Shown here: piece after piece, positions 2 to 44,219 of the stretch
Layout of the letters: every line of letters begins with the position of its first letter
Numbering within the stretch: position 1 is the stretch's first letter
DNA from: a virus
Strand: one strand, 5' to 3'
Length of the DNA stretch: 64,000 bases
IMG/VR virus record: IMGVR_UViG_3300031772_000002
Span: 100,447 to 164,446 of that record
Translations under genes and position numbers: made by a program
Notes under the pieces: model-generated
What the model was told of the DNA's origin: nothing
Databases searched by the model: none
The model's input: only the letters and a program-made list of their open reading frames with translations

Positions 2-196
2 ATGTATGCATGCCCAGGAATGGATAACATAGTTTATGGTTTACTTAATAGATATTTATTAAATGAATCTCATCAAGGAGCAACTGCAAGTGGAGCAAGT
101 TTCATAAAAGATTGTGGACCTTCACAAATTAATATGACACCGGCAAATTCTCCTGAATATACAGGTAGTCGAATAAGAACAAGAAAATTTTTATAA
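2..196 (+). CDS. 3' end of an upstream gene (partial, hypothetical)
   Basis: Open from the window edge; stops just before the AAGGA RBS of 212. Confidence 0.6.
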   Translation: MYACPGMDNIVYGLLNRYLLNESHQGATASGASFIKDCGPSQINMTPANSPEYTGSRIRTRKFL

Positions 197-3697: not shown

Positions 3698-5530
3698 ATG
3701 GAAATTTTTAGAGAATCTGAAGTTGCATCAATATTTACTGTTCCATTAATTGATGCATCAAAAAGACCTAGTTATAAAGCAAATCCAACTCTTGAAGCTG
3801 GTGATGTAAAAGTAATAAGACATACCGGTGGGGCATGGGATGTTTCAAATATTGCATCATTGCCATCAGCAATTGTTGGCGCGACATCAAATGTTTTAGT
3901 GTCTTTAACTGATACTGAATTAACATCTGATGATTTAAAATATCCAATTATTGTACAGTTTATAGATCAAACCGCCATAAACGAATGGGACAATCAAACT
4001 GTTATAATATGGACTCAAGTTTTAAATGTTGATCTTCTTAAAATTAATCATGAATCTATTAGTGGAAATGATGCAATATTAAATTTAAAACAATTAAATA
4101 TTGTATGCGATTCAGGAAAAGCGGTTAATATTGAATCTTTAGATAATATAGGAATTGATATTAAGGGCGGAGAAACGTATGAAGGAGTAAAAATAGAAGG
4201 TGGCGATGATGGGAATGGTTTAACAATATCAGCAGGTGAATCAGCTCATGGTATAGAAATAAATGCAGGTACTAACGGGGGCTATGCAGTTAAAATTCGT
4301 AATGATTATAGTGGGCCTGCTGTTTCAATACAAGCTATTGATGGGGCAGGGTTAGATTGTTCTGGTAAAACTGCTGGAATAAAAACAATAGCAACTGAAG
4401 GGGCTGGAATATTAATAGAAGGTGGTGGCGGACCTGGTATTGAAGTTATTGGTGATGATGGATTTTCTGGAATCTTAGCAAAAACTGTTGATAATGGATG
4501 CGGGATTGAAGTTATAGGCTCTTCTGACCAGCCAGGAATTAAAGTAACTGGTGGTCTTACTGGAGATGGTATGCGCATAGAAGCTGGTCCTAATGGCAAT
4601 GGAAACGGTTTAGCCGTACAAGGACAATCTGATGGAATATATGCGTATAGTCAGGACGGAGCTAATGGCATGTATTTACAAGGTGACGGGGAAGGGTCAG
4701 GTTTGTATATAGCAGGAGGAATTGAAGGAAATGGTATAGATGTTGATTCCGGTCCTACTACAGGAAATGGTATAAATATTTTAAGCGATGTTGGAATTGG
4801 AATAAATGTACAAGGTGGATTGGATAAGCCTGGAATTAAAGTGTCAGGAGGAATTACAGGAAATGCCATAGAAATTGTTGGTGGGGCTACATCTGGAAAT
4901 GGAATTGATATATCTACCATTGAAGGTTTAGGGATTAAAATTATTGCTGGTGGTACTGAAAAAGATGGAATATCAATTCAAGGATCTCCTGATGGCAATG
5001 GTATTAAAATTGATGGATTCGGAATAGGGCATGGTATTAAAATTGCTGCAGGAATTGAAGGGAGTGGTATTGTAGTGTATGGAGGATCTGATCTTGAACT
5101 TGGAGGACCTGCTATAGATTTAATTGGATCAAATACAAATACATATGCTGTTCAAATTCATGGAGGCATGTCAATGGTATCAAATACTGCTCTTCCTGGA
5201 TTGTTAATTACAGGAGATAGTGAATCTCCTGGAGTGTCTATTGCGGGTGGTTCATCTGGAAATGGCATTGATATTGTTGGGGCAGTTGGGCCTTCATTCT
5301 ATGATATTAACGCTAAAGAAGTAATAGGGCTTACACATTTAGATAGTGAAATTGATACTGTTCCTATATCTGAAGTTCTTGAACTTGTTATGGCTATGGT
5401 GAATGGTCGATTTGTAAAAGACGATCCTGAACCTGGACAAATTACATTTTATAAACGCGACGATGTGACTCCATTATTTACTGTAGCAGTAACTGAAACA
5501 GAACGTGAGCGTACTGATATTCCTGAGTAA
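3698..5530 (+). CDS. Glycine-rich repeat (beta-helix/beta-roll-like) virion protein
   Basis: Many G(N)GI-x-I-x-G repeats over residues ~140-530; AAGGAG RBS. Confidence 0.7.
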   Translation: MEIFRESEVASIFTVPLIDASKRPSYKANPTLEAGDVKVIRHTGGAWDVSNIASLPSAIVGATSNVLVSLTDTELTSDDLKYPIIVQFIDQTAINEWDNQTVIIWTQVLNVDLLKINHESISGNDAILNLKQLNIVCDSGKAVNIESLDNIGIDIKGGETYEGVKIEGGDDGNGLTISAGESAHGIEINAGTNGGYAVKIRNDYSGPAVSIQAIDGAGLDCSGKTAGIKTIATEGAGILIEGGGGPGIEVIGDDGFSGILAKTVDNGCGIEVIGSSDQPGIKVTGGLTGDGMRIEAGPNGNGNGLAVQGQSDGIYAYSQDGANGMYLQGDGEGSGLYIAGGIEGNGIDVDSGPTTGNGINILSDVGIGINVQGGLDKPGIKVSGGITGNAIEIVGGATSGNGIDISTIEGLGIKIIAGGTEKDGISIQGSPDGNGIKIDGFGIGHGIKIAAGIEGSGIVVYGGSDLELGGPAIDLIGSNTNTYAVQIHGGMSMVSNTALPGLLITGDSESPGVSIAGGSSGNGIDIVGAVGPSFYDINAKEVIGLTHLDSEIDTVPISEVLELVMAMVNGRFVKDDPEPGQITFYKRDDVTPLFTVAVTETERERTDIPE

Positions 5531-5544
5531 TACGAAAGATTGAA

Positions 5545-7596
5545 ATGGAAACAATTTTAACAACTGTAGATAATATATCCGTATATGGATTCAAATATCA
5601 AGGATCTAATATATTATTAGCAACATATGGATATCTTGATATTGATGATGCAAGACCTATTCCAAGTTTACCAGCAAGAATTGATGAATCTCCTTCTGAA
5701 TATGTTAATATTGAAGAAATGACAGGTCTTGTTTTTTGGAATTATATTTCTACTTTTTGGAATTATTTAACAGAAAAAGATCGTGATATTTTTGAAAATT
5801 TTTGGGATGGATTAACAAAAGCTAGTTATAGTTTATATGATAAATCTAAACGTTTTTTTAATTTAACAAATCCTGAAAATACAAATATTAACATTAGTGA
5901 ATATTATTATGATGTTTTAATCGGACCACTTAATTCTATACCTACTAATCTCGATCCAACTTCAAAAAATCCTAATTATATAATTCGTCCTATTAATAAA
6001 ATACTTATTGAACCTGAATATGATTCAAATGAAAATCCAATATATAATGATTTAATAGAAATAGAACGTAACGATTATTATAAAATAAGAGATATTGGAA
6101 TAGGGCAATATATTATTATTAAATTAAATGATGAAAATATTAATAATAAATATTTTAAAATTATAGACTTACTTTCATCAGAAGAAATTGACAATCGTTA
6201 CTATCCAGCATCAAGTAAAATTATAGTTAATGATGAATTGGTTGATGCCAAACCATCATTTAAATATATAATTAAAATAGATGGAGATTTATCATATATT
6301 AAAGACAACACATTTACTATATATTTAACTACTGGATTGTCTTATCAAATTGACAATTATATAACAGATCTTCCTGTATTGAAAAGTTTTATAAGTCAAC
6401 AATATGGAACTTCATTTTATGAAAATGTAGATTATTTATTTTATAATCATACTGTTGAATTTATTAATAATATTTTTAGTAATGGAAATCTTGAATTCGA
6501 TACTTATTTATATTGTCCTAATTCAAAATCAATTGAATACATGTTATATGAAACATATGGAACTCTTGTTGATTTGAGTGATTGGGAGTCTTATGGACAT
6601 GATGTTATTTCCGGCAAGGCGTCAATAAATTCACTATTATTATCTATCCAAAATTCTAACACTCTTTCATATTATAATAGGGCTTTAAATATCTATTATG
6701 GAATGCCTGTTGCTCCTGAAGATGCTACAGTAATAGGATTGTATGAATCGTATGCGTATGAAGTTTTATCAAAATCAGAATCTTATATTACTATTAAACT
6801 TAAATCAGGATCTTCAATGCATCCATTTATCCAGAATGGAACAGTTTTACTTGTTGAAGGAAAATCTGAAATAATGGTATATTCTGTTATTAACAGATTA
6901 ACTGGAGAATTAAGATTGTACGAAAGTAATAATGTAGCTGTTGGGGATTTTGTATATGTAAAACTTAATAATAAATATGGTATTAATGGTTTTAGAAAAG
7001 AAGTTGGTGAATTGCCAGGATCAATAGATATTCAAACTGAGTATGATGCAGATAAAATACAACATATTATTGATATTATTCAATATTTAACAGATAATAA
7101 ACAATATCCTGAAATTTTAGTATATGGAACAGAATTATTAGAGTATAATTATAATGGTATCTACCATATAACTAAATCTGAAAAAGTATTTTATGATACT
7201 AGATTAAAAATTTATCTTAAATCAAATAATGATAGTACTATATATAATGATTTTATTGTAAAAGGAGACTCTCGATTACATGGAGGATTTGTTCATATTC
7301 CATGGCCAACTCATAAATTTTTATATTTATATCTTAAATCAAAAAGATACTATAAGGTGTATATAGATACATCCCTTGATACTATATATGATACCGGAGA
7401 TGAAGTTAAAAAATATGACGTTATCACTCGAAACGTTTCTGCTGTTGATAATGAAATGTTTAAAGGTTGGGTTGAATTTGATCAATTTAGAAGATATAAT
7501 GGATTAAATATAGAATCTAATCATATTGAGTTAACAAGTACAATGCCAATGGCAAAATTTGGAGAATATTTTCCTGGAAGCGTTTTGTTAAAATAA
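5545..7596 (+). CDS. Putative baseplate/structural protein
   Basis: 683-aa ORF in structural operon; function inferred from context only. Confidence 0.45.
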   Translation: METILTTVDNISVYGFKYQGSNILLATYGYLDIDDARPIPSLPARIDESPSEYVNIEEMTGLVFWNYISTFWNYLTEKDRDIFENFWDGLTKASYSLYDKSKRFFNLTNPENTNINISEYYYDVLIGPLNSIPTNLDPTSKNPNYIIRPINKILIEPEYDSNENPIYNDLIEIERNDYYKIRDIGIGQYIIIKLNDENINNKYFKIIDLLSSEEIDNRYYPASSKIIVNDELVDAKPSFKYIIKIDGDLSYIKDNTFTIYLTTGLSYQIDNYITDLPVLKSFISQQYGTSFYENVDYLFYNHTVEFINNIFSNGNLEFDTYLYCPNSKSIEYMLYETYGTLVDLSDWESYGHDVISGKASINSLLLSIQNSNTLSYYNRALNIYYGMPVAPEDATVIGLYESYAYEVLSKSESYITIKLKSGSSMHPFIQNGTVLLVEGKSEIMVYSVINRLTGELRLYESNNVAVGDFVYVKLNNKYGINGFRKEVGELPGSIDIQTEYDADKIQHIIDIIQYLTDNKQYPEILVYGTELLEYNYNGIYHITKSEKVFYDTRLKIYLKSNNDSTIYNDFIVKGDSRLHGGFVHIPWPTHKFLYLYLKSKRYYKVYIDTSLDTIYDTGDEVKKYDVITRNVSAVDNEMFKGWVEFDQFRRYNGLNIESNHIELTSTMPMAKFGEYFPGSVLLK

Positions 7597-7612
7597 TTTA
7601 AAAGGATTTTCA

Positions 7613-8017
7613 ATGAATATTATTCCATTAGTTAGAAATAAAATGCTTACTATTGCTAAAGATGCAATTCTTCATGAAGATATAATAATTAAACAAATTA
7701 CATTTTTAGATAATTCATCGCTTGTTTTAGCTAATATGCCATTTTATGATTTAGTATATCTTGGAAGTCAAACTCAATTAAAATTTTATTCTATAGGAGG
7801 AGGAACTGTACTGCGAACATCAATTATATTATCAGGAACTCCTGTAAGATTTGAAATTTTAGGAAAACCGGAAGGTGAAGACGATCCATTAATAGTATTA
7901 TCAGGAACTGTTGGATCTATTAATACTAAATCAGATATAAAGTTTAATAGAATAAATTGGATTAGTGGAGGAATATTAACTTTAAATAATCTTGTATTGA
8001 TTTTACCTAATTCTTAA
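7613..8017 (+). CDS. Hypothetical structural protein
   Basis: AAGGA RBS, operon context. Confidence 0.6.
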   Translation: MNIIPLVRNKMLTIAKDAILHEDIIIKQITFLDNSSLVLANMPFYDLVYLGSQTQLKFYSIGGGTVLRTSIILSGTPVRFEILGKPEGEDDPLIVLSGTVGSINTKSDIKFNRINWISGGILTLNNLVLILPNS

Positions 8018-35222: not shown

Positions 35223-35257
35223 AAAAAAAAGAGTCAATCGTATTGATTGACTCTTTT
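35223..35257 (-). terminator. Rho-independent terminator of the Ubl operon
   Basis: AAAAGAGTCAATC-GTATT-GATTGACTCTTTT with poly-U on the - strand. Confidence 0.8.
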
Positions 35258-35276: not shown

Positions 35277-35774
35277 TTATTTTTTATTTCTATTACCTTT
35301 CATTGACTGAGAAAGTATTAACCGAACCATACCTTCACCTTCATTTGGATAGATTATCTCATTACTGTTCATAGGATTTCCACCCGTTGATTTTCTATAT
35401 TCATACGCATCTTTTCCATCGGCTTTAAAATATTGACCTTTTTTTTCTTCTGGTAATAGATCAATAATTTGTTTGATTGACATGCCAACATTAGCATTTA
35501 CAGTATCAAAATTTGGAACTCCCAATCTGATTAACTGAACTTGAAAATCATTTCCATTACCCTTTACATTCTCACCAATGATAACTGTATCGCCATCTTT
35601 CAATTGGGTATTATTATTAATTCTTTCTCCGCTCCTTGTTATCGTTTCACTACTTTTAATTTTTTTATTTGCCACTTCAAGCAAGAATTCTACTTTAGGA
35701 TTAGACGAAACCTCATACGATTTAACATCAGCACCTAAAGAAACTAAAGTAACGATTATTGGACTACCATTCAT
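35277..35774 (-). CDS. Tandem ubiquitin-like (beta-grasp) protein
   Basis: Two related halves (V.L..LG...), LKDGDTVII motif, each half ending KGN; follows the E1 gene. Confidence 0.75.
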   Translation of the reverse strand: MNGSPIIVTLVSLGADVKSYEVSSNPKVEFLLEVANKKIKSSETITRSGERINNNTQLKDGDTVIIGENVKGNGNDFQVQLIRLGVPNFDTVNANVGMSIKQIIDLLPEEKKGQYFKADGKDAYEYRKSTGGNPMNSNEIIYPNEGEGMVRLILSQSMKGNRNKK

Positions 35775-35784
35775 AAAAAAACTC

Positions 35785-36522
35785 CTATACTTTTAATAAT
35801 GTTTCACTGTCATTAAATCTTCTCATAAAAAAAGATTCAGGATATAAAGTAAAAATATATTCATTCCACATTTTTACTTCTGGTTGATCACAATACTTTT
35901 GAACAAAATGTTGAATCATTTTAGAACATGCAACACTGGCAATATATGTAGCTGTTATTATAATTGATTGGCTGGTTCCGCACAAGGACACATCAGCTTC
36001 CTCATCTGTACATAATGTTTTTTTCCACGCATCTACTTCTTCACCGATATGAGGATTAAACGCATAGATTCGACCTCCACGCAATCCCATTCTTGTTTCT
36101 ATTACCATATCGGTATTGAAGCTATATTTTATGCAGTTCTCAAATATTTCTTTACGACTCTTCATCGTATCTGTCAATAAGAAAACGTAAGTTGATTGAA
36201 CATCTTTGTCTTCAGTAACTATCATTCGATTGAATGTTTGTACTGAAAAATTACACTTACGTTTTATAATATCGTTCATAGCTTCTACTTTTGGCTTACC
36301 AACATCTTGTGGATAAAAAGATTGATTTGCCAAATTATGCTCTTCAACAATATCACCATCAAATAATTTAAGAACTCCTTGTTCATTATTACTATCTCCC
36401 CACCCTAATTGGGCAAGCATTAAAGCAATGGCACTTCCAGTAGCTCCGACCCCTACCAAAGAAATACTTTTATTTCTAATCATTTTTGGATTAATTAATT
36501 TTGATTGTCTACTATAATTCAT
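35785..36522 (-). CDS. ThiF/MoeB-family E1-like adenylyltransferase
   Basis: VGVGATGS nucleotide loop, DGDIVEEHNLANQ, GKPKV, TDTMKSR, candidate catalytic Cys in SLCG. Confidence 0.9.
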   Translation of the reverse strand: MNYSRQSKLINPKMIRNKSISLVGVGATGSAIALMLAQLGWGDSNNEQGVLKLFDGDIVEEHNLANQSFYPQDVGKPKVEAMNDIIKRKCNFSVQTFNRMIVTEDKDVQSTYVFLLTDTMKSRKEIFENCIKYSFNTDMVIETRMGLRGGRIYAFNPHIGEEVDAWKKTLCTDEEADVSLCGTSQSIIITATYIASVACSKMIQHFVQKYCDQPEVKMWNEYIFTLYPESFFMRRFNDSETLLKV

Positions 36523-37550
36523 AATAATTCCTTAAATTCATTATTATTATTATTATTAGATTTTAATTTATCTAATAATTCTATATATTCATTTAATTGA
36601 ATTATTTTATTATCTTCATAAAATACCACTTGTCTTTTTCCATCAACAAATTCAATTTTGCTACTTAAATTTTTTTTTTTATTATTGTTATATTTATGTC
36701 TCATATCAAAATTATCATATTCATGAAAATCATTATTATTATTTATATAACCATTTCTATTATCAAACAAAGACTGTTGCTTATTAAAATTTATATCAGT
36801 TTTAATATTAATTTCTTTTAATTTCAAAACCTTATTTACTATTTTATTATAAATAGATGAATCTGATATTGCTTTTGAAATTTTATCTACAACTTCGTTA
36901 ACTGATATTTCTTCTTGATCATATTTATTTATTATAATTTTTATTTCATTTATTTTTTTCAAATTAAGTTCTTCGTCTTCTTTTTCAATTTCCCATTTAA
37001 TATTATCAAATCTGATATTTTTAAATGGATCAAAAAAAGACACTGACATTTCTTTATCATCACATATTACTCTTATTAAATAAGAATTTGTACTTTTAAT
37101 TCGATCAATAGTCTGACTTTCATCCTGGTTGCTTGGACTAGTACCAGACATGTGTTTGTGTCCCCAAAGTTTTATTTTTCCTATTTCTTCCATTTTATTA
37201 TTATTAATCATGTACTGAATTAACTCAATTTCTCCATCGGAACTAATAGTACATGTTCCAGTATTAGCCTCTGAGTGTTTTGGATAATAGACATTTTTAA
37301 TATAAAATTTATAATCACCAATTTCTTCTACAGTTGCATAAAATCCAACTTCATGATTATGATTTTCAATAATAGCACCAATCCACATCATAGACTTTTT
37401 ACTGAAAATAATAATTGGAGAAATTTTATGTTCAGGAATTAACTGGCTATAAGTGGTATTTATATTTCTTTTGCTAAAACTTCTCATAGTTAACCTTTCA
37501 TGTTTTTTACACAAGGATACCATGCCCCTTGTGGCCATGGTAGTTTGCAA
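36519..37550 (-). CDS. JAB/MPN+ metallopeptidase (deubiquitinase-like)
   Basis: HEVG ... WGHKHMSGTSPSNQD (E...HxH...SxxD). Confidence 0.8.
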   Translation of the reverse strand: MQTTMATRGMVSLCKKHERLTMRSFSKRNINTTYSQLIPEHKISPIIIFSKKSMMWIGAIIENHNHEVGFYATVEEIGDYKFYIKNVYYPKHSEANTGTCTISSDGEIELIQYMINNNKMEEIGKIKLWGHKHMSGTSPSNQDESQTIDRIKSTNSYLIRVICDDKEMSVSFFDPFKNIRFDNIKWEIEKEDEELNLKKINEIKIIINKYDQEEISVNEVVDKISKAISDSSIYNKIVNKVLKLKEINIKTDINFNKQQSLFDNRNGYINNNNDFHEYDNFDMRHKYNNNKKKNLSSKIEFVDGKRQVVFYEDNKIIQLNEYIELLDKLKSNNNNNNEFKELL

Positions 37551-37556
37551 AATCTC

Positions 37557-38663
37557 TTATATTACATTAGGAAAAAACTTAATAAATACACCTAATTCAT
37601 CATTCATATTAGGTTGAGTAATAAACCTTATTATAATATCAAATATCATAGAGATATTTTTTAAAGCAAATGCTTTAATTAATGATTCCGTTACTACGTC
37701 CCCTAAACACATTGTTTCATTTCTAAAAACATGACCACACTCCAAAATTCTTCCTGAATAACTATCATAAAATCCTCTACTCATATTATGAATAGTTATA
37801 AAATTAGTAACTGTTCCTAATTCTCCAAAAAATAGTAAAATGTTGACTCCTATTCTCATTCTACCTATTTTTTTAAAAAATAACTCTCCATCATTTTCTT
37901 CTTTATAATCAAATACTTTTTCTTGTGTAATCAACTCTTTAGTAATGATTACAATTTCATCCTTAGTAAAACCTATTTCTTCTATATTATCATTAATTTT
38001 TAATTTATCAATATCATTGACAAATTTATCAATAAATTTATTATTATTAATACATACAAAACAATCATGAATTGATTGTTCTAACATAATTAATTCAGTA
38101 ATTAATCTTTTCTTTTTATTTTCCAAATCTTCAAGACGTTTTGAAGTATTAATTGTTTCTTTAAATATTTTTGAAATATAAGTTTTTAATTTATCATTAA
38201 AAAGAATGAATACTGAATTAGATCTAAACCAAAGATCAGATTTATCAGTATTTTCTTTATACCCTTCTTCATAATTAATTTCTTTATCTTCTTCTAAAAT
38301 TTCTAAAAATTTCTGATCTTCATTAGAAGTAATTTCTTCAACACAATCATCTTCAATATTAGAAATAATTTCATCAACACAATCTTCTTTATCTCCTACA
38401 GAATTAGCATTATTTGGAATTAAATTTTTTATACAAATTTCATCTGGATAATTATTATCAATAATATTAAGATTGTCAAATATCTTTTTTATTTCAGGAT
38501 TATAATTAATTAATAAATCTATAAATTCCTTCATTTTTTCTTTATCTACAGATACTAATGCTGCATCACTTGTATAACTTAAAATAGTAGAAATTTTAAA
38601 AATATCTTGAGATACTTTAAAAAAATCCACTATTTCATTTAATATAGTAACAATAATTTTCAT
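37557..38663 (-). CDS. Coiled-coil plus prokaryotic E2-like domain protein
   Basis: GHVFRNETMCLGD followed by an amphipathic helix; paralogous to the C-terminus of 38682..40787. Confidence 0.6.
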   Translation of the reverse strand: MKIIVTILNEIVDFFKVSQDIFKISTILSYTSDAALVSVDKEKMKEFIDLLINYNPEIKKIFDNLNIIDNNYPDEICIKNLIPNNANSVGDKEDCVDEIISNIEDDCVEEITSNEDQKFLEILEEDKEINYEEGYKENTDKSDLWFRSNSVFILFNDKLKTYISKIFKETINTSKRLEDLENKKKRLITELIMLEQSIHDCFVCINNNKFIDKFVNDIDKLKINDNIEEIGFTKDEIVIITKELITQEKVFDYKEENDGELFFKKIGRMRIGVNILLFFGELGTVTNFITIHNMSRGFYDSYSGRILECGHVFRNETMCLGDVVTESLIKAFALKNISMIFDIIIRFITQPNMNDELGVFIKFFPNVI

Positions 38664-38681: not shown

Positions 38682-40787
38682 TTAAATTTTTATAGGTATA
38701 AAATCTCTTATTTTATCATCAAAAACTTTTTCCTTTTCAGAAATTTTGTACATAGTATTATAATCTAGCAAATCATCATCCTTTAATGCAATTTCTTTAG
38801 TAACTTCTGGCCAATTCACTACATGCTTACCAGCCGCATCACTTGTATTTACAGATTCAAGAAATATAATAATTTGATAAACTAGAGAATAAAGATCTCT
38901 ATTTCTATAAGAAGTTATCAATTGATTTCCAAGATTTCCATGGCAAATTCTACCATCACTAAAAACATGAGGGGCATTCATGTTATTCTCGTAACCATTA
39001 ATAGTATGTTTAGTATTGATAATCTTAATTGTATTATTTTCATCATATTTATTCGAATTAATTCCTATTGTTATTAGAAAAGTTCCAATATCATACCATT
39101 TATCACCAACATTAACATATAAATTTTTAGTATTAACATTAACAGTATCGTTTTTCAGTGATATAGATAAAACTTTTTTTAAATTTAAACATTCATCGTA
39201 TGATGATAAAGCTTTTTCTTTTTGTTTAACTATAAAGTCATTAAAATCAAAATGACTTATTTTTTCCATAGTTCTATCCATAAGTTTTGAATATTCCAAT
39301 ACTTCATTATAACTTTTTAAATATTTTGATCTATATTCATTATAAATTTCTTTTAAATCTGAAATATATTTTGTACTATTATCTATAACGTACTCAACAT
39401 ATTTTTCTCTATCTATAATATTTTTAGACAATATATAATTTTTATCAATTTCAAAAATTTCTTTTAATGTATATTTTTTTAAATATCTATTTGAAAATTC
39501 TTTAAAAATTAATTTCATACATAAATTATGATTTTCTTTTAACAATTTATCACTTTGTAAAATAGCTACATTACTAACAATTGGTATCATAAAAAATACC
39601 ATATTTTCTTTTTGAATTCCCCATATTAGGTTGGAAATATGATCCTTATAAACCATATTAAAATTATTAAATGATGAAGTTTCTTTTGATTTATTTTTTA
39701 ATACGAATATACTATATAATTCGTAACCAAAACAATTTATATTAACATTTCTACGTTCAACACAGTCAAATCCAATAGTATTATAATTAAATGCATATAA
39801 AGGATAGTTCATTCTTTCAATAAAAAAAAATAAAATATTTTTTTTTATTTCTTGAACTATATTTATATCAAAATTATTATTTAAATATGTTGCTATATCA
39901 TGTATAAATCTAAATTCAATAATAATAATATGTTTTTTAATATTTTCAGCAATAGATTTTATTTCATAAAAAAAATCTTTTAAATATTCAGAATCTACTT
40001 TAGTTAAAAAATATGTAACTAAATATGAAGAATCTTCATAATTTCCAATATTTTTTTCATCAACAGAGTATTGTTTTTTATATAAATGAATAAGTAAATA
40101 GTTATTTATATATTTTAATACTTCAGATTTAAAATTTATTATTTTAATTTCTTCATCATCAACTGGAAGTATTGATGAATTTTCATCTTTAGCAATTATA
40201 TTTTCATTTATAGATGAAGCCTCAATACTATCAAAATGCTGTGCGCTAACTAATTTACTTTTATCTAAAACACTATCTAATTCATCTAAAATTTGATCTA
40301 ACTGTTCATTATGTATAACTTCAGTTTGATGTTCTTGTTCAGACGCTATATTTGGTAAACTTTGCTCTATTGGAGTTATTAATCTCTTGATTTCCAGTAC
40401 AACATCATCAAATATAAATCTATTACCACTATTATTTAAGCATATAAAATTATATAACTCTTCATTTAAATTTGAAGGAGTTAATTCAAATAATATATTA
40501 TCATTAATCCAAAATGGATGTAATATTATTTTCACACCACTTATATTTGAATTGACTGTTTGTATTTTAATATCGTATACTTTTTCATAATCCTTACATG
40601 ATGAAAGTTTATCCTTTATTTTATTACAATTAAAAATTTCTTTAATAATATTTATAATTTTTAATGTATCAGTTCTACTAACTATCGCTATTTCTTCATT
40701 TGAATTAAGTGTATATGGAACATAGTCAACACCAATATTTTGAGCTAGCCATTTTTCACAAAAAGCAAACATATTATCACATTCCAT
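38682..40787 (-). CDS. Large protein with C-terminal prokaryotic E2 (UBC-fold) domain
   Basis: APHVFSDGRICHGN (PHV..G.IC.G E2 signature) after a coiled coil. Confidence 0.7.
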   Translation of the reverse strand: MECDNMFAFCEKWLAQNIGVDYVPYTLNSNEEIAIVSRTDTLKIINIIKEIFNCNKIKDKLSSCKDYEKVYDIKIQTVNSNISGVKIILHPFWINDNILFELTPSNLNEELYNFICLNNSGNRFIFDDVVLEIKRLITPIEQSLPNIASEQEHQTEVIHNEQLDQILDELDSVLDKSKLVSAQHFDSIEASSINENIIAKDENSSILPVDDEEIKIINFKSEVLKYINNYLLIHLYKKQYSVDEKNIGNYEDSSYLVTYFLTKVDSEYLKDFFYEIKSIAENIKKHIIIIEFRFIHDIATYLNNNFDINIVQEIKKNILFFFIERMNYPLYAFNYNTIGFDCVERRNVNINCFGYELYSIFVLKNKSKETSSFNNFNMVYKDHISNLIWGIQKENMVFFMIPIVSNVAILQSDKLLKENHNLCMKLIFKEFSNRYLKKYTLKEIFEIDKNYILSKNIIDREKYVEYVIDNSTKYISDLKEIYNEYRSKYLKSYNEVLEYSKLMDRTMEKISHFDFNDFIVKQKEKALSSYDECLNLKKVLSISLKNDTVNVNTKNLYVNVGDKWYDIGTFLITIGINSNKYDENNTIKIINTKHTINGYENNMNAPHVFSDGRICHGNLGNQLITSYRNRDLYSLVYQIIIFLESVNTSDAAGKHVVNWPEVTKEIALKDDDLLDYNTMYKISEKEKVFDDKIRDFIPIKI

Positions 40788-40886: not shown

Positions 40887-41192
40887 TTACTTTAGAGAAT
40901 TTAAAAAATTAAGCCCAAGAGAGATTTTAATATTATTCCACCTATCGATGGAATCACATGAAAAAGCTTTAGATCCGCAATCATTTAACTTTTTTATTTT
41001 ATATTCCTGTAATTTACTTGGAACCTTTCCTGGCTTTTTTACTTCAATAAATACCGCCCCGGTAATTTTTGTAGTAAAGAAAATATCCAATTCACCGGAA
41101 TCACTTGACTTTATTAATTTAAAACATTCACAATATTTTCCATAAGATCGTAAATCTTTTAAAATAATATCCTGAATTTTTTTTTCTTTCAT
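40887..41192 (-). CDS. VRR-NUC domain nuclease
   Basis: MKEKKIQ...G..D...FIEVKKPG...S.LQ. Confidence 0.85.
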   Translation of the reverse strand: MKEKKIQDIILKDLRSYGKYCECFKLIKSSDSGELDIFFTTKITGAVFIEVKKPGKVPSKLQEYKIKKLNDCGSKAFSCDSIDRWNNIKISLGLNFLNSLK

Positions 41193-42241: not shown

Positions 42242-42505
42242 TCAACGTTTCACTAACAATATTTTTTTTCTATCAAAACCTAAACTTTTTGAAATTTCAG
42301 GAGTAAACCAGCCCTTTTCTTTAAATACTTTTTCAAAATAATCACCAGTATCACCTTGTAAAAGTGGATCACCACATTTCGAAAATCTCCATCTATATGC
42401 CATATCATATTGGGACATGGCATCTATTTGTTTTTTCTGTTCATCTGTCATTAAATTCTCCTTATAAAACATTCGCCCATTTAGATAAAGTAAAAGATAA
42501 ATCAA
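42242..42505 (-). CDS. Small phage hypothetical protein
   Basis: ID.M....M...WRF...G.P..QG..G.YF...F...G..TPEISK.LG; likely start MTDEQ after AAGGAG. Confidence 0.65.
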   Translation of the reverse strand: MIYLLLYLNGRMFYKENLMTDEQKKQIDAMSQYDMAYRWRFSKCGDPLLQGDTGDYFEKVFKEKGWFTPEISKSLGFDRKKILLVKR

Positions 42506-44219
42506 TTTTATTTTTTATAGCTTTTAAAATTATTTCATCTATTGTTCCAGATACAGTCAAATCAATAACTGTAACATTATTCTTTTGACCTTGCCTATAT
42601 TGCCTTCCTTCGGCTTGATCCCTTTCAATATATGAATAAGAGTTAGTTACAAATACAGAATAATTTGAAAATTGAATATTATGACCGGCTCCCATTTTTT
42701 TCTGATTTGCTATCAAAAATCTATATTTATTATCTTTAAACTTTTGAATAGTATCAAAAACATCTTGATCTTGATAACATGTTAATAATTTTTCTACACC
42801 AAAAGCTTGTGAAAGTTTTTCAACAATAATTTCAATACCATATGTATAGTTACACCAAATAATAACTTTACAATCTTTATTGATATTATTAAGTATTTGA
42901 ACCAATAATTCCAATTTTGGATTCTCTTTAATTTTAATAATATTTCTTTTTTCTATTTTCTTTCCATTACTATCTATTTCAATACGTGTATTAATATAAA
43001 ATCCAAATGATATCTGCTGCAATTTTCTTAATAAAACTAATGCATTCTTTGCAATTAATGAATTTTCACAAGAATTATTGCAATTATTTTTACATGTACA
43101 ACTTTCGCACATATTATTAATAGTTACTATTAATTCTTTTTTTAACTCATTGTAAATTCTTTCTTGTTCAGTTCCCATTGAGCAAGAATATGTTTCATAT
43201 ATTAATTCAGGAAGATCTATGCATTCTTCTTTTTTAAATCTAACAGCCAGATCACCAATTATTTTTGATACCTTATCAACAGATCCTTTGTTAGGAACCA
43301 ATATATATTGATTAATATCCACCGGATGCATAAAATTTCCACGAAATTCACTATACTTGGCAAAAGGAACAGTATCAGGGCCAAGAAATCTATATGGCAT
43401 AAAAAATGACATAAGATTATTAGCTGTAAGTGTTGCGGTAATAATATATTTATATTTACATGATTCAAAAAAATCTACGATAGCCCTGGTTTGATGTGAA
43501 GAAGGACTTCCTATTCTATGTGCTTCATCAAGTATTACCATATTAAAAAATTCTTTTGGAATTATTTCTATTAATGAATTCATTGATTCATAATTTGCTA
43601 TATAAATATCATAATCCACATTCTTTTTATTATCTTTATATTTTTTATTAATTATAGAATCAGATTTACTTTTATTAGAAAGAATTACCCCTTTTAAATG
43701 AGGAACTTGAATTTTCATCTCTTCAAAAACATTTTTCTTTAAATTTGAAAGAGTAATTATAATAGCTCTTTTAATTTTTTTTAGTTGTATTTTTTTATCT
43801 ATAGCCCATAAATAAGGACCCGTTTTACACGTCCCCGTGTCCGCTAAAATGGCCGAAGCGTCAGGATATACTATCATATTAAAAATTATTTTTTGATGCT
43901 TCATGACGCTATAACAGCCCCTATATTCATAATCAAATTTGATATCTTCACTATTATATTGAGATTTTATTTTTTTAATAACTTCTTTACGCTTTTGAAT
44001 ATTTAATTCAACTAATCTAATAATTGATCTAACCTCATCTGAACACTCTATTTTATAATCAGTAAAATAATTTAACTTAGTACTTGATTTATTAGGAATA
44101 ATAATTTTATTTACATTTCTAACTTTACGTCCATCCATTGTTGCCTGCATTTGCTCAAGAAGAACTTTATCATTGCATCCTACAATTAACTGGTTCTTAT
44201 TATATATTTCAACTTTCAA
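42462..44219 (-). CDS. SNF2-family (SF2) helicase/ATPase
   Basis: DTGTCKT, ILDEAH, TATLTAN, LLRKLQQI, GAGHNIQ, QAEGRQYRQGQ. Confidence 0.9.
   Translation of the reverse strand: MKVEIYNKNQLIVGCNDKVLLEQMQATMDGRKVRNVNKIIIPNKSSTKLNYFTDYKIECSDEVRSIIRLVELNIQKRKEVIKKIKSQYNSEDIKFDYEYRGCYSVMKHQKIIFNMIVYPDASAILADTGTCKTGPYLWAIDKKIQLKKIKRAIIITLSNLKKNVFEEMKIQVPHLKGVILSNKSKSDSIINKKYKDNKKNVDYDIYIANYESMNSLIEIIPKEFFNMVILDEAHRIGSPSSHQTRAIVDFFESCKYKYIITATLTANNLMSFFMPYRFLGPDTVPFAKYSEFRGNFMHPVDINQYILVPNKGSVDKVSKIIGDLAVRFKKEECIDLPELIYETYSCSMGTEQERIYNELKKELIVTINNMCESCTCKNNCNNSCENSLIAKNALVLLRKLQQISFGFYINTRIEIDSNGKKIEKRNIIKIKENPKLELLVQILNNINKDCKVIIWCNYTYGIEIIVEKLSQAFGVEKLLTCYQDQDVFDTIQKFKDNKYRFLIANQKKMGAGHNIQFSNYSVFVTNSYSYIERDQAEGRQYRQGQKNNVTVIDLTVSGTIDEIILKAIKNKIDLSFTLSKWANVL

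Follow-up and report, generated by a model that had tools for sequence, protein, structure and literature searches.

The final 64 kb of a 164,446-bp uncultured phage record (IMG/VR IMGVR_UViG_3300031772_000002), which has direct terminal repeats and is rated 100% complete, are analyzed here as the window (64,000 nucleotides; G+C 27.5%). On its minus strand, five tightly packed genes form an operon that encodes two E2-like proteins, a JAB metallopeptidase, an E1 and, as the last gene, a 165-amino acid (aa) tandem ubiquitin-like (Ubl) precursor, Ubl2 (35277..35774). This last gene is defined by its open reading frame (ORF), an AlphaFold2 (AF2) model, Foldseek matches and homologues. A GGAG ribosome-binding site lies 8 nt 5' of its start, which is 10 nt past the E1 stop, and the operon ends at an intrinsic-terminator-like hairpin of 13 pairs followed by a T run (35227..35257, minus strand). 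The other genes, all on the same strand, are a minimal ThiF-type E1 (245 aa, 35785..36522; Pfam ThiF, profile A4 and invariant columns), a JAB/JAMM metallopeptidase (343 aa as listed, probably 322; 36519..37550; motifs and ESM Atlas), a small E2-like protein (368 aa, 37557..38663; alignment A3 and a His/Cys motif) and a large E2-like protein (701 aa, 38682..40787; C-terminal paralogy to the small one and the same motif). The gene order E2-like, JAB, E1, Ubl is kept in 42 viral loci (L007-L048), which were located via the adjacent JAB gene.

The precursor contains the tripeptide Lys-Gly-Asn (KGN) twice, at residues 71-73 (IIGENVKGNGNDFQ) and at residues 159-161, the latter followed by a short tail and the stop (LSQSMKGNRNKK). 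From the composition of the protein itself, 0.17 occurrences are expected by chance. Both motifs stand exactly five residues past the last strand of a predicted beta-grasp (strands 63-68 and 149-156). An earlier reading made without database searches, referred to here as the sequence-only reading, had noticed that both halves end identically, with ENVKGN at the junction and with QSMKGN followed by RNKK at the end, and the ORF bears this out. Unit D1 (residues 1-73; 35556..35774, minus strand) is a ThiS/SAMP2-like beta-grasp with the C-terminal end ENVKGN. Its Lys71-Gly72-Asn73 (35556..35564, minus strand) is the predicted D1 end and first processing site, as judged from conservation and a dip in the predicted local distance difference test score (pLDDT). 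A Gly-Asn-Asp linker and unit D2, ending in QSMKGN, make up residues 74-161 (35292..35555, minus strand), as delimited by AF2, a hidden Markov model (HMM) and VIA-align. Lys159-Gly160-Asn161 (35292..35300, minus strand) is conserved and is the predicted mature end of D2. The tail Arg-Asn-Lys-Lys (35280..35291, minus strand) shows no conservation and is predicted to be trimmed off.

An exhaustive HMMER search gave 53 relatives, and 48 homologues of 24-70% identity, mostly 24-40%, were aligned (alignment A1). AF2 reached a pLDDT of 35 from the single sequence, and a usable model was obtained only with A1. This model has a pLDDT of 90.6 and consists of two beta-grasp domains (residues 7-68 and 76-156) with a flexible joint between them. 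The mean pLDDT is 75 for the joint residues 71-80, compared with 89-98 in the flanking blocks, and 55 for the tail residues 161-165. The predicted template modeling score (pTM) of 0.57 is as expected of two beads on a string and suggests that the modeled domains have no fixed packing. The best Foldseek matches in the PDB are linear di-ubiquitin, ISG15 and FAT10 (E ~1e-7, probability 1.00). In VIA-align comparisons, the model matches Mth1743 with a Z score of 9.2 (root-mean-square deviation 2.7, 70 aligned residues, model 2..73 with chain 4..73), SAMP1 with 9.0, and TtuB and MoaD with 8.8. The A1 profile finds SAMP2 in the PDB (5lda_B, E 1.4e-4; H. volcanii SAMP2, E 3e-3). In Pfam, ThiS (PF02597) is matched by 19 of the 48 homologues (best E 2.7e-7) and SAMP2 by six. 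D2 (76-161) is also recognized by a single-unit HMM that was seeded on D1 and iterated over related phage loci, and the two are thus units of one kind, with D2 as a larger and diverged copy. D2 is the larger of the two and carries an insertion, ADG..YEYR; in the window protein and its clade, the two units are unlike in both length and sequence. The gene is therefore supported as a tandem Ubl precursor by its conserved operon, in which it is accompanied by two E2-like genes, a JAB and a minimal E1 with an invariant Cys. The sequence-only reading had arrived at a tandem ubiquitin-like precursor as well, and the modeled fold, its structural matches and the adjoining enzyme genes agree with it.

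The end motif was counted in 78 distinct complete family proteins, which comprise HMMER relatives and proteins from the 42 viral loci. Single units are found in 23 of them, two units in 52 and three units in 3. KGN closes 119 of the 136 unit ends, that is, 69 of 78 terminal and 50 of 58 internal ends, and all two-unit and three-unit relatives have an end motif on each unit. The last residue of the unit is Asn in about 90% of the ends and Ala, Ser or Gly in the rest; a Gly-Gly end occurs in one distant relative only (P0054). Within A1, Lys159 is invariant, and Lys71, Gly72, Asn73, Gly160 and Asn161 are each at least 90% conserved. Conservation of KGN among homologues had been named beforehand as a point on which the sequence-only reading could fail, and the motif proved to be conserved at both ends. 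Between 0 and 37 residues of variable composition follow the terminal triplet. Even in P0002, which at 70% identity is the closest relative, a tail of Ile-Ser stands where the window protein has Arg-Asn-Lys-Lys.

When multi-unit proteins carry a variant motif, the same variant is found at all ends in four of five cases: KAN/KAN in P0024, KGS/KGS in P0047, KGG/KGG in P0054 and KGA/KGA in L035. The exception is P0053 with TGN/KAN. Such concerted change at sites in dissimilar domains would be expected if the same enzymes read both ends. Single-unit genes (67-88 aa) occupy the same operon position in sister phages. Near-identical units are found only in L012 and P0051. The L012 gene (2264-2896, plus strand) encodes three near-identical 69-aa units, each ending in QIKGN, plus one extra C-terminal Asn, and a single E2-like gene lies upstream of it. 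This is a true polyubiquitin-like gene, the closest look-alike from a prokaryotic virus among those seen.

Two further family members have unusual layouts. The 332-aa protein of L016 (7649-8647, plus strand) carries about 140 extra N-terminal residues and units ending in AGN and KGN. Its Asp/Glu-rich acidic tail of 37 residues would be an unusually long extension to trim. The L035 phage has two E1 genes (3-943, cut by the contig end, and 4320-7718). One of them is followed by the two-unit KGA/KGA tag, and the other lies in an E2-JAB-E1 block that no tag gene follows.

Sequence profiles, structural ranges and natural stops bear on which residue forms the mature end. The Pfam ThiS profile closes with the terminal Gly at position 76 of 76, and in P0054 this position is aligned directly to the latter Gly of KGG. 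When the alignments of P0014, P0031, P0046, L033 and L021 are extended without gaps, the end of the profile falls on Asn. HMMER aligned RLIKGG of H. volcanii SAMP2 to kkvKGN of the family. Ubiquitin ends in Leu-Arg-Gly-Gly, and this pattern of hydrophobic, basic, Gly and a final residue matches the family ends. In VIA-align, model residues 3..161 correspond to -2..152 of linear di-ubiquitin, and residue 161 corresponds to residue 304 of tetra-ubiquitin. Model residue 73 pairs with the last residue of Mth1743, and residue 72 with residue 80 of the 81-residue MoaD. Furthermore, 26 of the 78 proteins stop exactly at the Asn-position residue and none at the Gly, and 16 of the 23 single-unit genes end exactly on this residue (Asn or Ala). 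One residue follows the triplet in 31 of the 78, and this residue varies (E, K, R, N, L, D, I and others). Such a pattern reads as a conserved terminal residue with an optional disposable tail and is unlike a conserved cap. By four independent lines, Asn thus takes the place that the activated terminal Gly has in ThiS, MoaD, SAMP2, TtuB and ubiquitin. The mature ends are therefore read as Lys-Gly-Asn-COOH, and this predicted register is likely, clearly more so than a cut between Gly and Asn. The precursor shares the fold and the profile matches of the ThiS/MoaD/SAMP superfamily and lacks its C-terminal Gly-Gly.

The E1 matches Pfam ThiF with an E value of 4.5e-21. When its profile (A4) was compared with the PDB, Uba1, Uba6, Uba5 and ThiF were found at ~1e-15, MccB at 4e-12, BubCD at 2e-10 and Cap2 at 3e-9; PaaA is also among the matches. 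The Rossmann motif reads G24-x-G26-x-x-G29, and the Mg/ATP residues include K78, D118, R123 and R144. Fourteen columns are invariant over 30 family E1s. They include the Rossmann glycines, these four Mg/ATP residues and Cys181, which is located at the end of the crossover loop. Residue 116 precedes the Mg-binding Asp118 by two positions. Of 31 E1s that accompany an Asn-ending tag, 30 have Leu here, and three Ala-ending lineages have Ala or Cys. This residue lies inside the modeled interface with the tag tail and may be a specificity contact for the terminal residue of the tag. The presence of two E1s in L035 blurs this correlation, which serves as a lead only. The canonical N-L-x-R-Q motif reads N-L-A-N-Q in this E1. 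Asn66 is invariant in all 30 family E1s, and Arg is conserved at this position in Uba1, Uba6, ThiF and MoeB. One locus from the E1-based search for related loci, L005, was discarded as spurious, being a terminase-like gene that shares one peptide pattern.

The E1 dimer (from A4) was docked with D1 cut at Asn73 (from A1). The model reached an ipSAE of 0.70, against 0.16 for the best of three controls; of 80 solved complexes, 58 reach this mark, as do 2 of 110 mismatched pairs. At least 85% of the contacts are shared by the three runs, and the partner has a pLDDT of 80 or more. The modeled D1 tail (67-73) lies against the E1 P-loop (24, 26-29) and residues 116-120, including Asp118, and 143-151. 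Asn73 contacts P-loop residue 28 and residue 145, and Gly72 contacts Asp118. An internal unit freed at Asn73 would thus fit the canonical E1 binding mode in this model. Since the ThiF-ThiS and MoeB-MoaD complexes are already solved, the docking pass may reflect likeness to them.

The JAB motifs, Glu67 (H-E-V-G) and His131-x-His133-x6-Ser140-x2-Asp143, are invariant in 14 homologues. Four of these 14 weakly match Pfam Prok-JAB (best E 0.0045), and the ESM Atlas neighbors are Prok-JAB clusters (features 0.95, structural template modeling score [TM] 0.75). The JAB itself has no direct match among library models, and PDB searches with the single protein and with profile A2 gave chance-level matches only. 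As listed, the ORF has 343 aa and starts at a TTG, but translation probably begins 21 residues later, at the ATG at 37487. The database form P0055 (322 aa) has this start, and homologues align from it. The C-terminal half is low in complexity, rich in Asn and Lys, and poorly conserved.

What the two E2-like proteins have in common is limited to a C-terminal domain, about 170 residues long, with the motif H-V-F-x5-C-x-G. This motif is His311-Val-Phe-x5-Cys319-x-Gly in the small protein and His607-Val-Phe-x5-Cys615-x-Gly in the large one. The N-terminal 190 residues of the small protein belong to no known family, and the N-terminal 500 residues of the large protein are unrelated to them. An iterated HMM finds an E2-like gene in nearly every related locus, with the His conserved in 98% and the Cys in 96% of 50 sequences. 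In L033, whose operon has a single-unit tag ending in VGN, the conserved Cys of a second E2-like protein (4533-5894, plus strand) is replaced by Val (APHVEL-SGYPVAG). This second protein looks like a UEV-like, inactive partner of an active E2.

The sequence-only reading had also suggested that each modifier serves one E2. In the E1 tree, all 8 rows of the window clade (support 100/99) combine a two-unit tag with two E2-like genes that bear the Cys; in the sister clade (L044, L029), a one-unit tag goes with a single E2. The combination of two units with two E2s recurs independently in L046. L033 combines a single unit with two E2-like genes, of which the second lacks the Cys, and L012 combines three identical units with one E2. 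However, L042 has two units and one detected E2. A pairing of one tag per E2 thus modestly fits most of these gene counts, with about two independent events and one exception. With one clean clade transition, L046 and the exception of L042, there are too few independent events for the claim, and the suggestion stands as a weak one.

We favor, with somewhat better than even confidence, the reading that Ubl2 is a polyubiquitin-style precursor of two different modifiers that serve a phage-owned E1-E2 conjugation system. The tandem fold, the end motifs, the Asn register, the conserved operon and catalytic residues, and the modeled E1-D1 docking were computed here, and from them we infer the course of cleavage, activation, transfer and targeting. 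The JAB would cut after Asn73 and Asn161 to release D1 (~73 aa) and D2 (~88 aa) and to remove Arg-Asn-Lys-Lys. Each unit would then end in Lys-Gly-Asn-COOH, with Asn replacing Gly76 of ubiquitin. Release of the units is predicted from indirect signs, namely the stand-alone single-unit genes, the concerted variants, the flexible joint and the adjacent conserved JAB. The minimal homodimeric E1 would adenylate the C-terminus of the unit, take the unit onto Cys181 and hand it on to one of the E2-like proteins, at Cys319 in the small one or at Cys615 in the large one. The long, unrelated N-terminal regions of these proteins probably select targets in place of an E3. The units would be attached to lysines of host or phage proteins during infection, and the JAB may also reverse the conjugation.

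Several points weigh against this reading. The multi-domain Ubls of Bil and Bub, as well as ISG15 and FAT10, are used uncut. D1 and D2 were seen as separate genes in none of the 42 viral loci and 53 representatives, and the fusion itself may therefore matter. The window Ubl alone has no match in Pfam, PHROGs or PADLOC, and tblastn against 50,697 phage records found nothing; its link to ThiS and SAMP2 runs via homologues and the profile instead of a direct Pfam match. For the E2-like proteins, searches of Pfam, PADLOC and PDB sequences, including profile A3, returned nothing. The family lead is a weak one to Prok-E2_D through ESM Atlas neighbors (score 0.87, TM 0.53). With no PDB match above chance level, the identities of the JAB and the E2-like proteins rest on motifs, weak Pfam matches of homologues and ESM Atlas neighbors. 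The H-x(6-9)-C-x-G motif and the Prok-E2_D leads point weakly to an E2, and we use the term E2-like only. Characterized beta-grasp modifiers all end in Gly, and characterized JAB/JAMM enzymes cut after Gly (PMC11601596, PMC1779556). Once activated, an Asn at the C-terminus is prone to cyclize to a succinimide, as in MccB (PMC11118369), and this reaction could compete with the thioester relay.

The Asn may even alter the chemistry, a speculative extension that we hold to be very doubtful. In such a case, the side-chain amide would attack after adenylation and form a C-terminal succinimide. An E1 or E2 Cys or a target Lys would open it, giving an isoAsn/Asp-type linkage that resists Gly-specific deconjugating enzymes. 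The outcome would be phage-specific orthogonal tagging with two tags and two carriers.

Ubl2 could also work as an uncut two-domain tag of the ISG15, FAT10 or BilA type, in which only the tail is trimmed, all 161 residues are conjugated and the internal KGN makes some other contact. We regard this as unlikely. Ubls of Type I Bil, with two beta-grasp domains, and of Bub, with one to three, are described as intact (PMC11601603). The Foldseek matches include ISG15 and FAT10 besides di-ubiquitin, and D1 and D2 are fused in all 52 two-domain relatives, with no split form seen. However, the internal motif shows the same degree of conservation as the terminal motif (50/58 versus 69/78) and changes in concert with it, which is unexpected for a buried or unused site, and sister operons encode single-unit and three-identical-unit forms. 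The joint is also the least confident interdomain stretch of the AF2 model, whose pTM suggests no fixed packing, and D1 cut at Asn73 docks in the E1 active site in our model. The same precursor might instead be cut by the JAB between Gly and Asn, as the sequence-only reading had proposed, so that the modifiers end in Lys-Gly and the Asn is removed with the tail. Polyubiquitin genes also have a one-residue cap, and at least one residue follows the Gly in 78 of 78 relatives, so a removable cap is always there. This cut would also keep to the activation of characterized Ubls at a C-terminal Gly and to JAB/JAMM cleavage after Gly (PMC11601596, PMC1779556). Against it stands the register described above, in which the Asn and not the preceding Gly aligns with the terminal Gly of ThiS, SAMP2, MoaD, TtuB and ubiquitin in both profile and structure. 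In P0054, the place of the Asn is taken by the second residue of a canonical Gly-Gly. A cap should vary as it does in ubiquitin-family precursors, but the residue here is nearly always Asn, and most single-unit genes stop exactly at it or at an Ala in its place. Taken with the natural stops, which never fall on the Gly, this makes the proposed cut quite improbable.

It is still harder to credit that no protein is conjugated at all, and we consider this highly improbable. The units would then be sulfur carriers like ThiS and MoaD, or the E1 would turn their C-terminal Asn into a succinimide or a nucleotide adduct, in the way MccB treats MccA. The ThiS and SAMP2 profiles do recognize D1-type units, the PDB matches of the E1 include MccB and PaaA, and the action of MccB, itself a ThiF-type enzyme, is specific to a C-terminal Asn (PMC12250964). 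However, no genes for sulfur transfer, thiamine or molybdopterin and no rhodanese domain were found nearby, whereas every operon includes a JAB and nearly every related locus at least one protein with an E2-type His...Cys motif; the sulfur-carrier version was set aside on these grounds. The E1 keeps an invariant crossover-loop Cys, which is needless for MccB chemistry. It also lacks the N-terminal peptide-clamp domain of MccB and PaaA, as its Rossmann motif begins at residue 24 of 245. The setting, moreover, is a phage early/replication block.

Among known systems, Bil is the nearest in gene content to the preferred arrangement of a two-modifier precursor with its own enzymes (PMC10557695, PMC11601596, PMC11601603). 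Both combine Ubl, JAB and E1 functions with an E2, here a putative one, in one operon and have no E3, with the E2 presumed to choose targets. The JAB of Bil pre-processes the Ubl, as is predicted here, and Type I BilA has two beta-grasp domains. However, the present operon is carried by a phage and not by a bacterial defense island. The 245-aa E1 has a single adenylation domain with the Cys in the crossover loop, whereas BilD consists of inactive and active adenylation domains and a mobile Cys domain. In the predicted register, the present tag has Gly-Asn instead of Gly at its end, the motif is present on each unit, and there are two E2-like genes. None of the PADLOC Bil models matches the Ubl, the JAB or the E2-like proteins, and the E1 matches the BilD model (E 1.1e-4) more weakly than the CBASS E1-E2 models. 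Bub also has a Ubl precursor that is cut by a JAB (BubAB, after G229) and a minimal homodimeric E1 (PMC11601596), and BubCD is matched by our E1 profile as noted. Bub, in contrast, forms Ser/Tyr oxyesters with an E1 and E2 that lack a catalytic Cys (PMC11601596), whereas the E1 Cys is invariant and the E2-like Cys highly conserved here; the Bub cut also follows a Gly. DUF6527 (BubE) has no match among the genes neighboring the operon.

As in the polyubiquitin genes UBI4, UBB and UBC, the units are arranged head to tail, each with its conjugation motif, short variable residues follow the last one, and a dedicated peptidase is presumed to release them. The window units differ from one another, however, in place of identical repeats, and short linkers separate them. 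Their motif is Lys-Gly-Asn, not Arg-Gly-Gly, and the presumed peptidase is a JAB metalloenzyme and not a Cys protease. Unlike in ISG15 and FAT10, KGN is retained in the N-terminal unit no less strictly than in the C-terminal one. SAMP2 is the closest solved sequence relative of D1, its IKGG aligns with VKGN, and SAMP2/UbaA/JAMM likewise pairs a minimal ThiF-type E1 with a JAMM peptidase. In contrast, SAMP systems have no E2, and their modifiers are single units ending in Gly-Gly, some of which double as sulfur carriers. MccB-MccA is the only precedent for an E1-type enzyme that acts on Asn, namely a C-terminal one (PMC12250964, PMC11118369). In MccB, a succinimide forms when the side chain of the Asn captures the adenylate, and an Asn-to-Gly change gives ubiquitin-like thioester formation (PMC12250964, PMC11118369). 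The Gly-to-Asn change in the present family is the reverse swap, with the E1 and E2-like cysteines kept. The MccB substrate is a seven-residue peptide held by an N-terminal clamp (RRE), whereas a folded beta-grasp meets a clamp-less E1 here. MccB has no catalytic Cys, E2 or JAB, and its product is a peptidyl-nucleotide antibiotic. The PDB matches between our E1 and MccB cover the adenylation domain only (chain residues 105-197).

To our knowledge, prokaryotic Ubl conjugation characterized so far belongs either to anti-phage defense (CBASS Cap2/Cap3, Bil, Bub) or to archaeal SAMPylation. Here, a full predicted conjugation kit is owned by a phage, and the family extends to 42 further viral contigs. 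Two different tags are packaged as one precursor beside two carrier enzymes, and the C-terminal Gly rule common to the studied beta-grasp modifiers is broken in the register given above. Tandem Ubl repeats in prokaryotic E1/E2/JAB operons were described in 2006 as "reminiscent of poly-ubiquitin" (PMC1779556), and the tandem layout alone is therefore not new. New for the family are a precursor whose two units differ and both end in the motif, its pairing with two E2-like genes, the concerted change of variant motifs and the evidence on the register. Our literature searches found no description of a Gly-Asn-ending Ubl or of the phage cassette. If the preferred reading is true, bacterial viruses run their own protein-tagging systems, E1 and JAB enzymes can act on a terminal Asn, and polyubiquitin-style precursor genes arose outside eukaryotes. 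An Asn-ending tag and its own E1 could also form an orthogonal bioconjugation pair, comparable to the tag work with MccB (PMC11118369).

The surroundings of the operon place it among replication genes. The structural genes are on the plus strand and face the operon, which lies outside the structural block. A VRR-NUC nuclease gene (40887-41192) lies just 5' of the operon and a helicase gene (42462-44219) further 5', both on the minus strand. With these two genes upstream on its own strand, the operon sits in the replication-side block, and the cassette travels with this block. A VRR-NUC gene also lies beside the operon in at least one relative, whose Ubl shares about 36% identity with that of the window.

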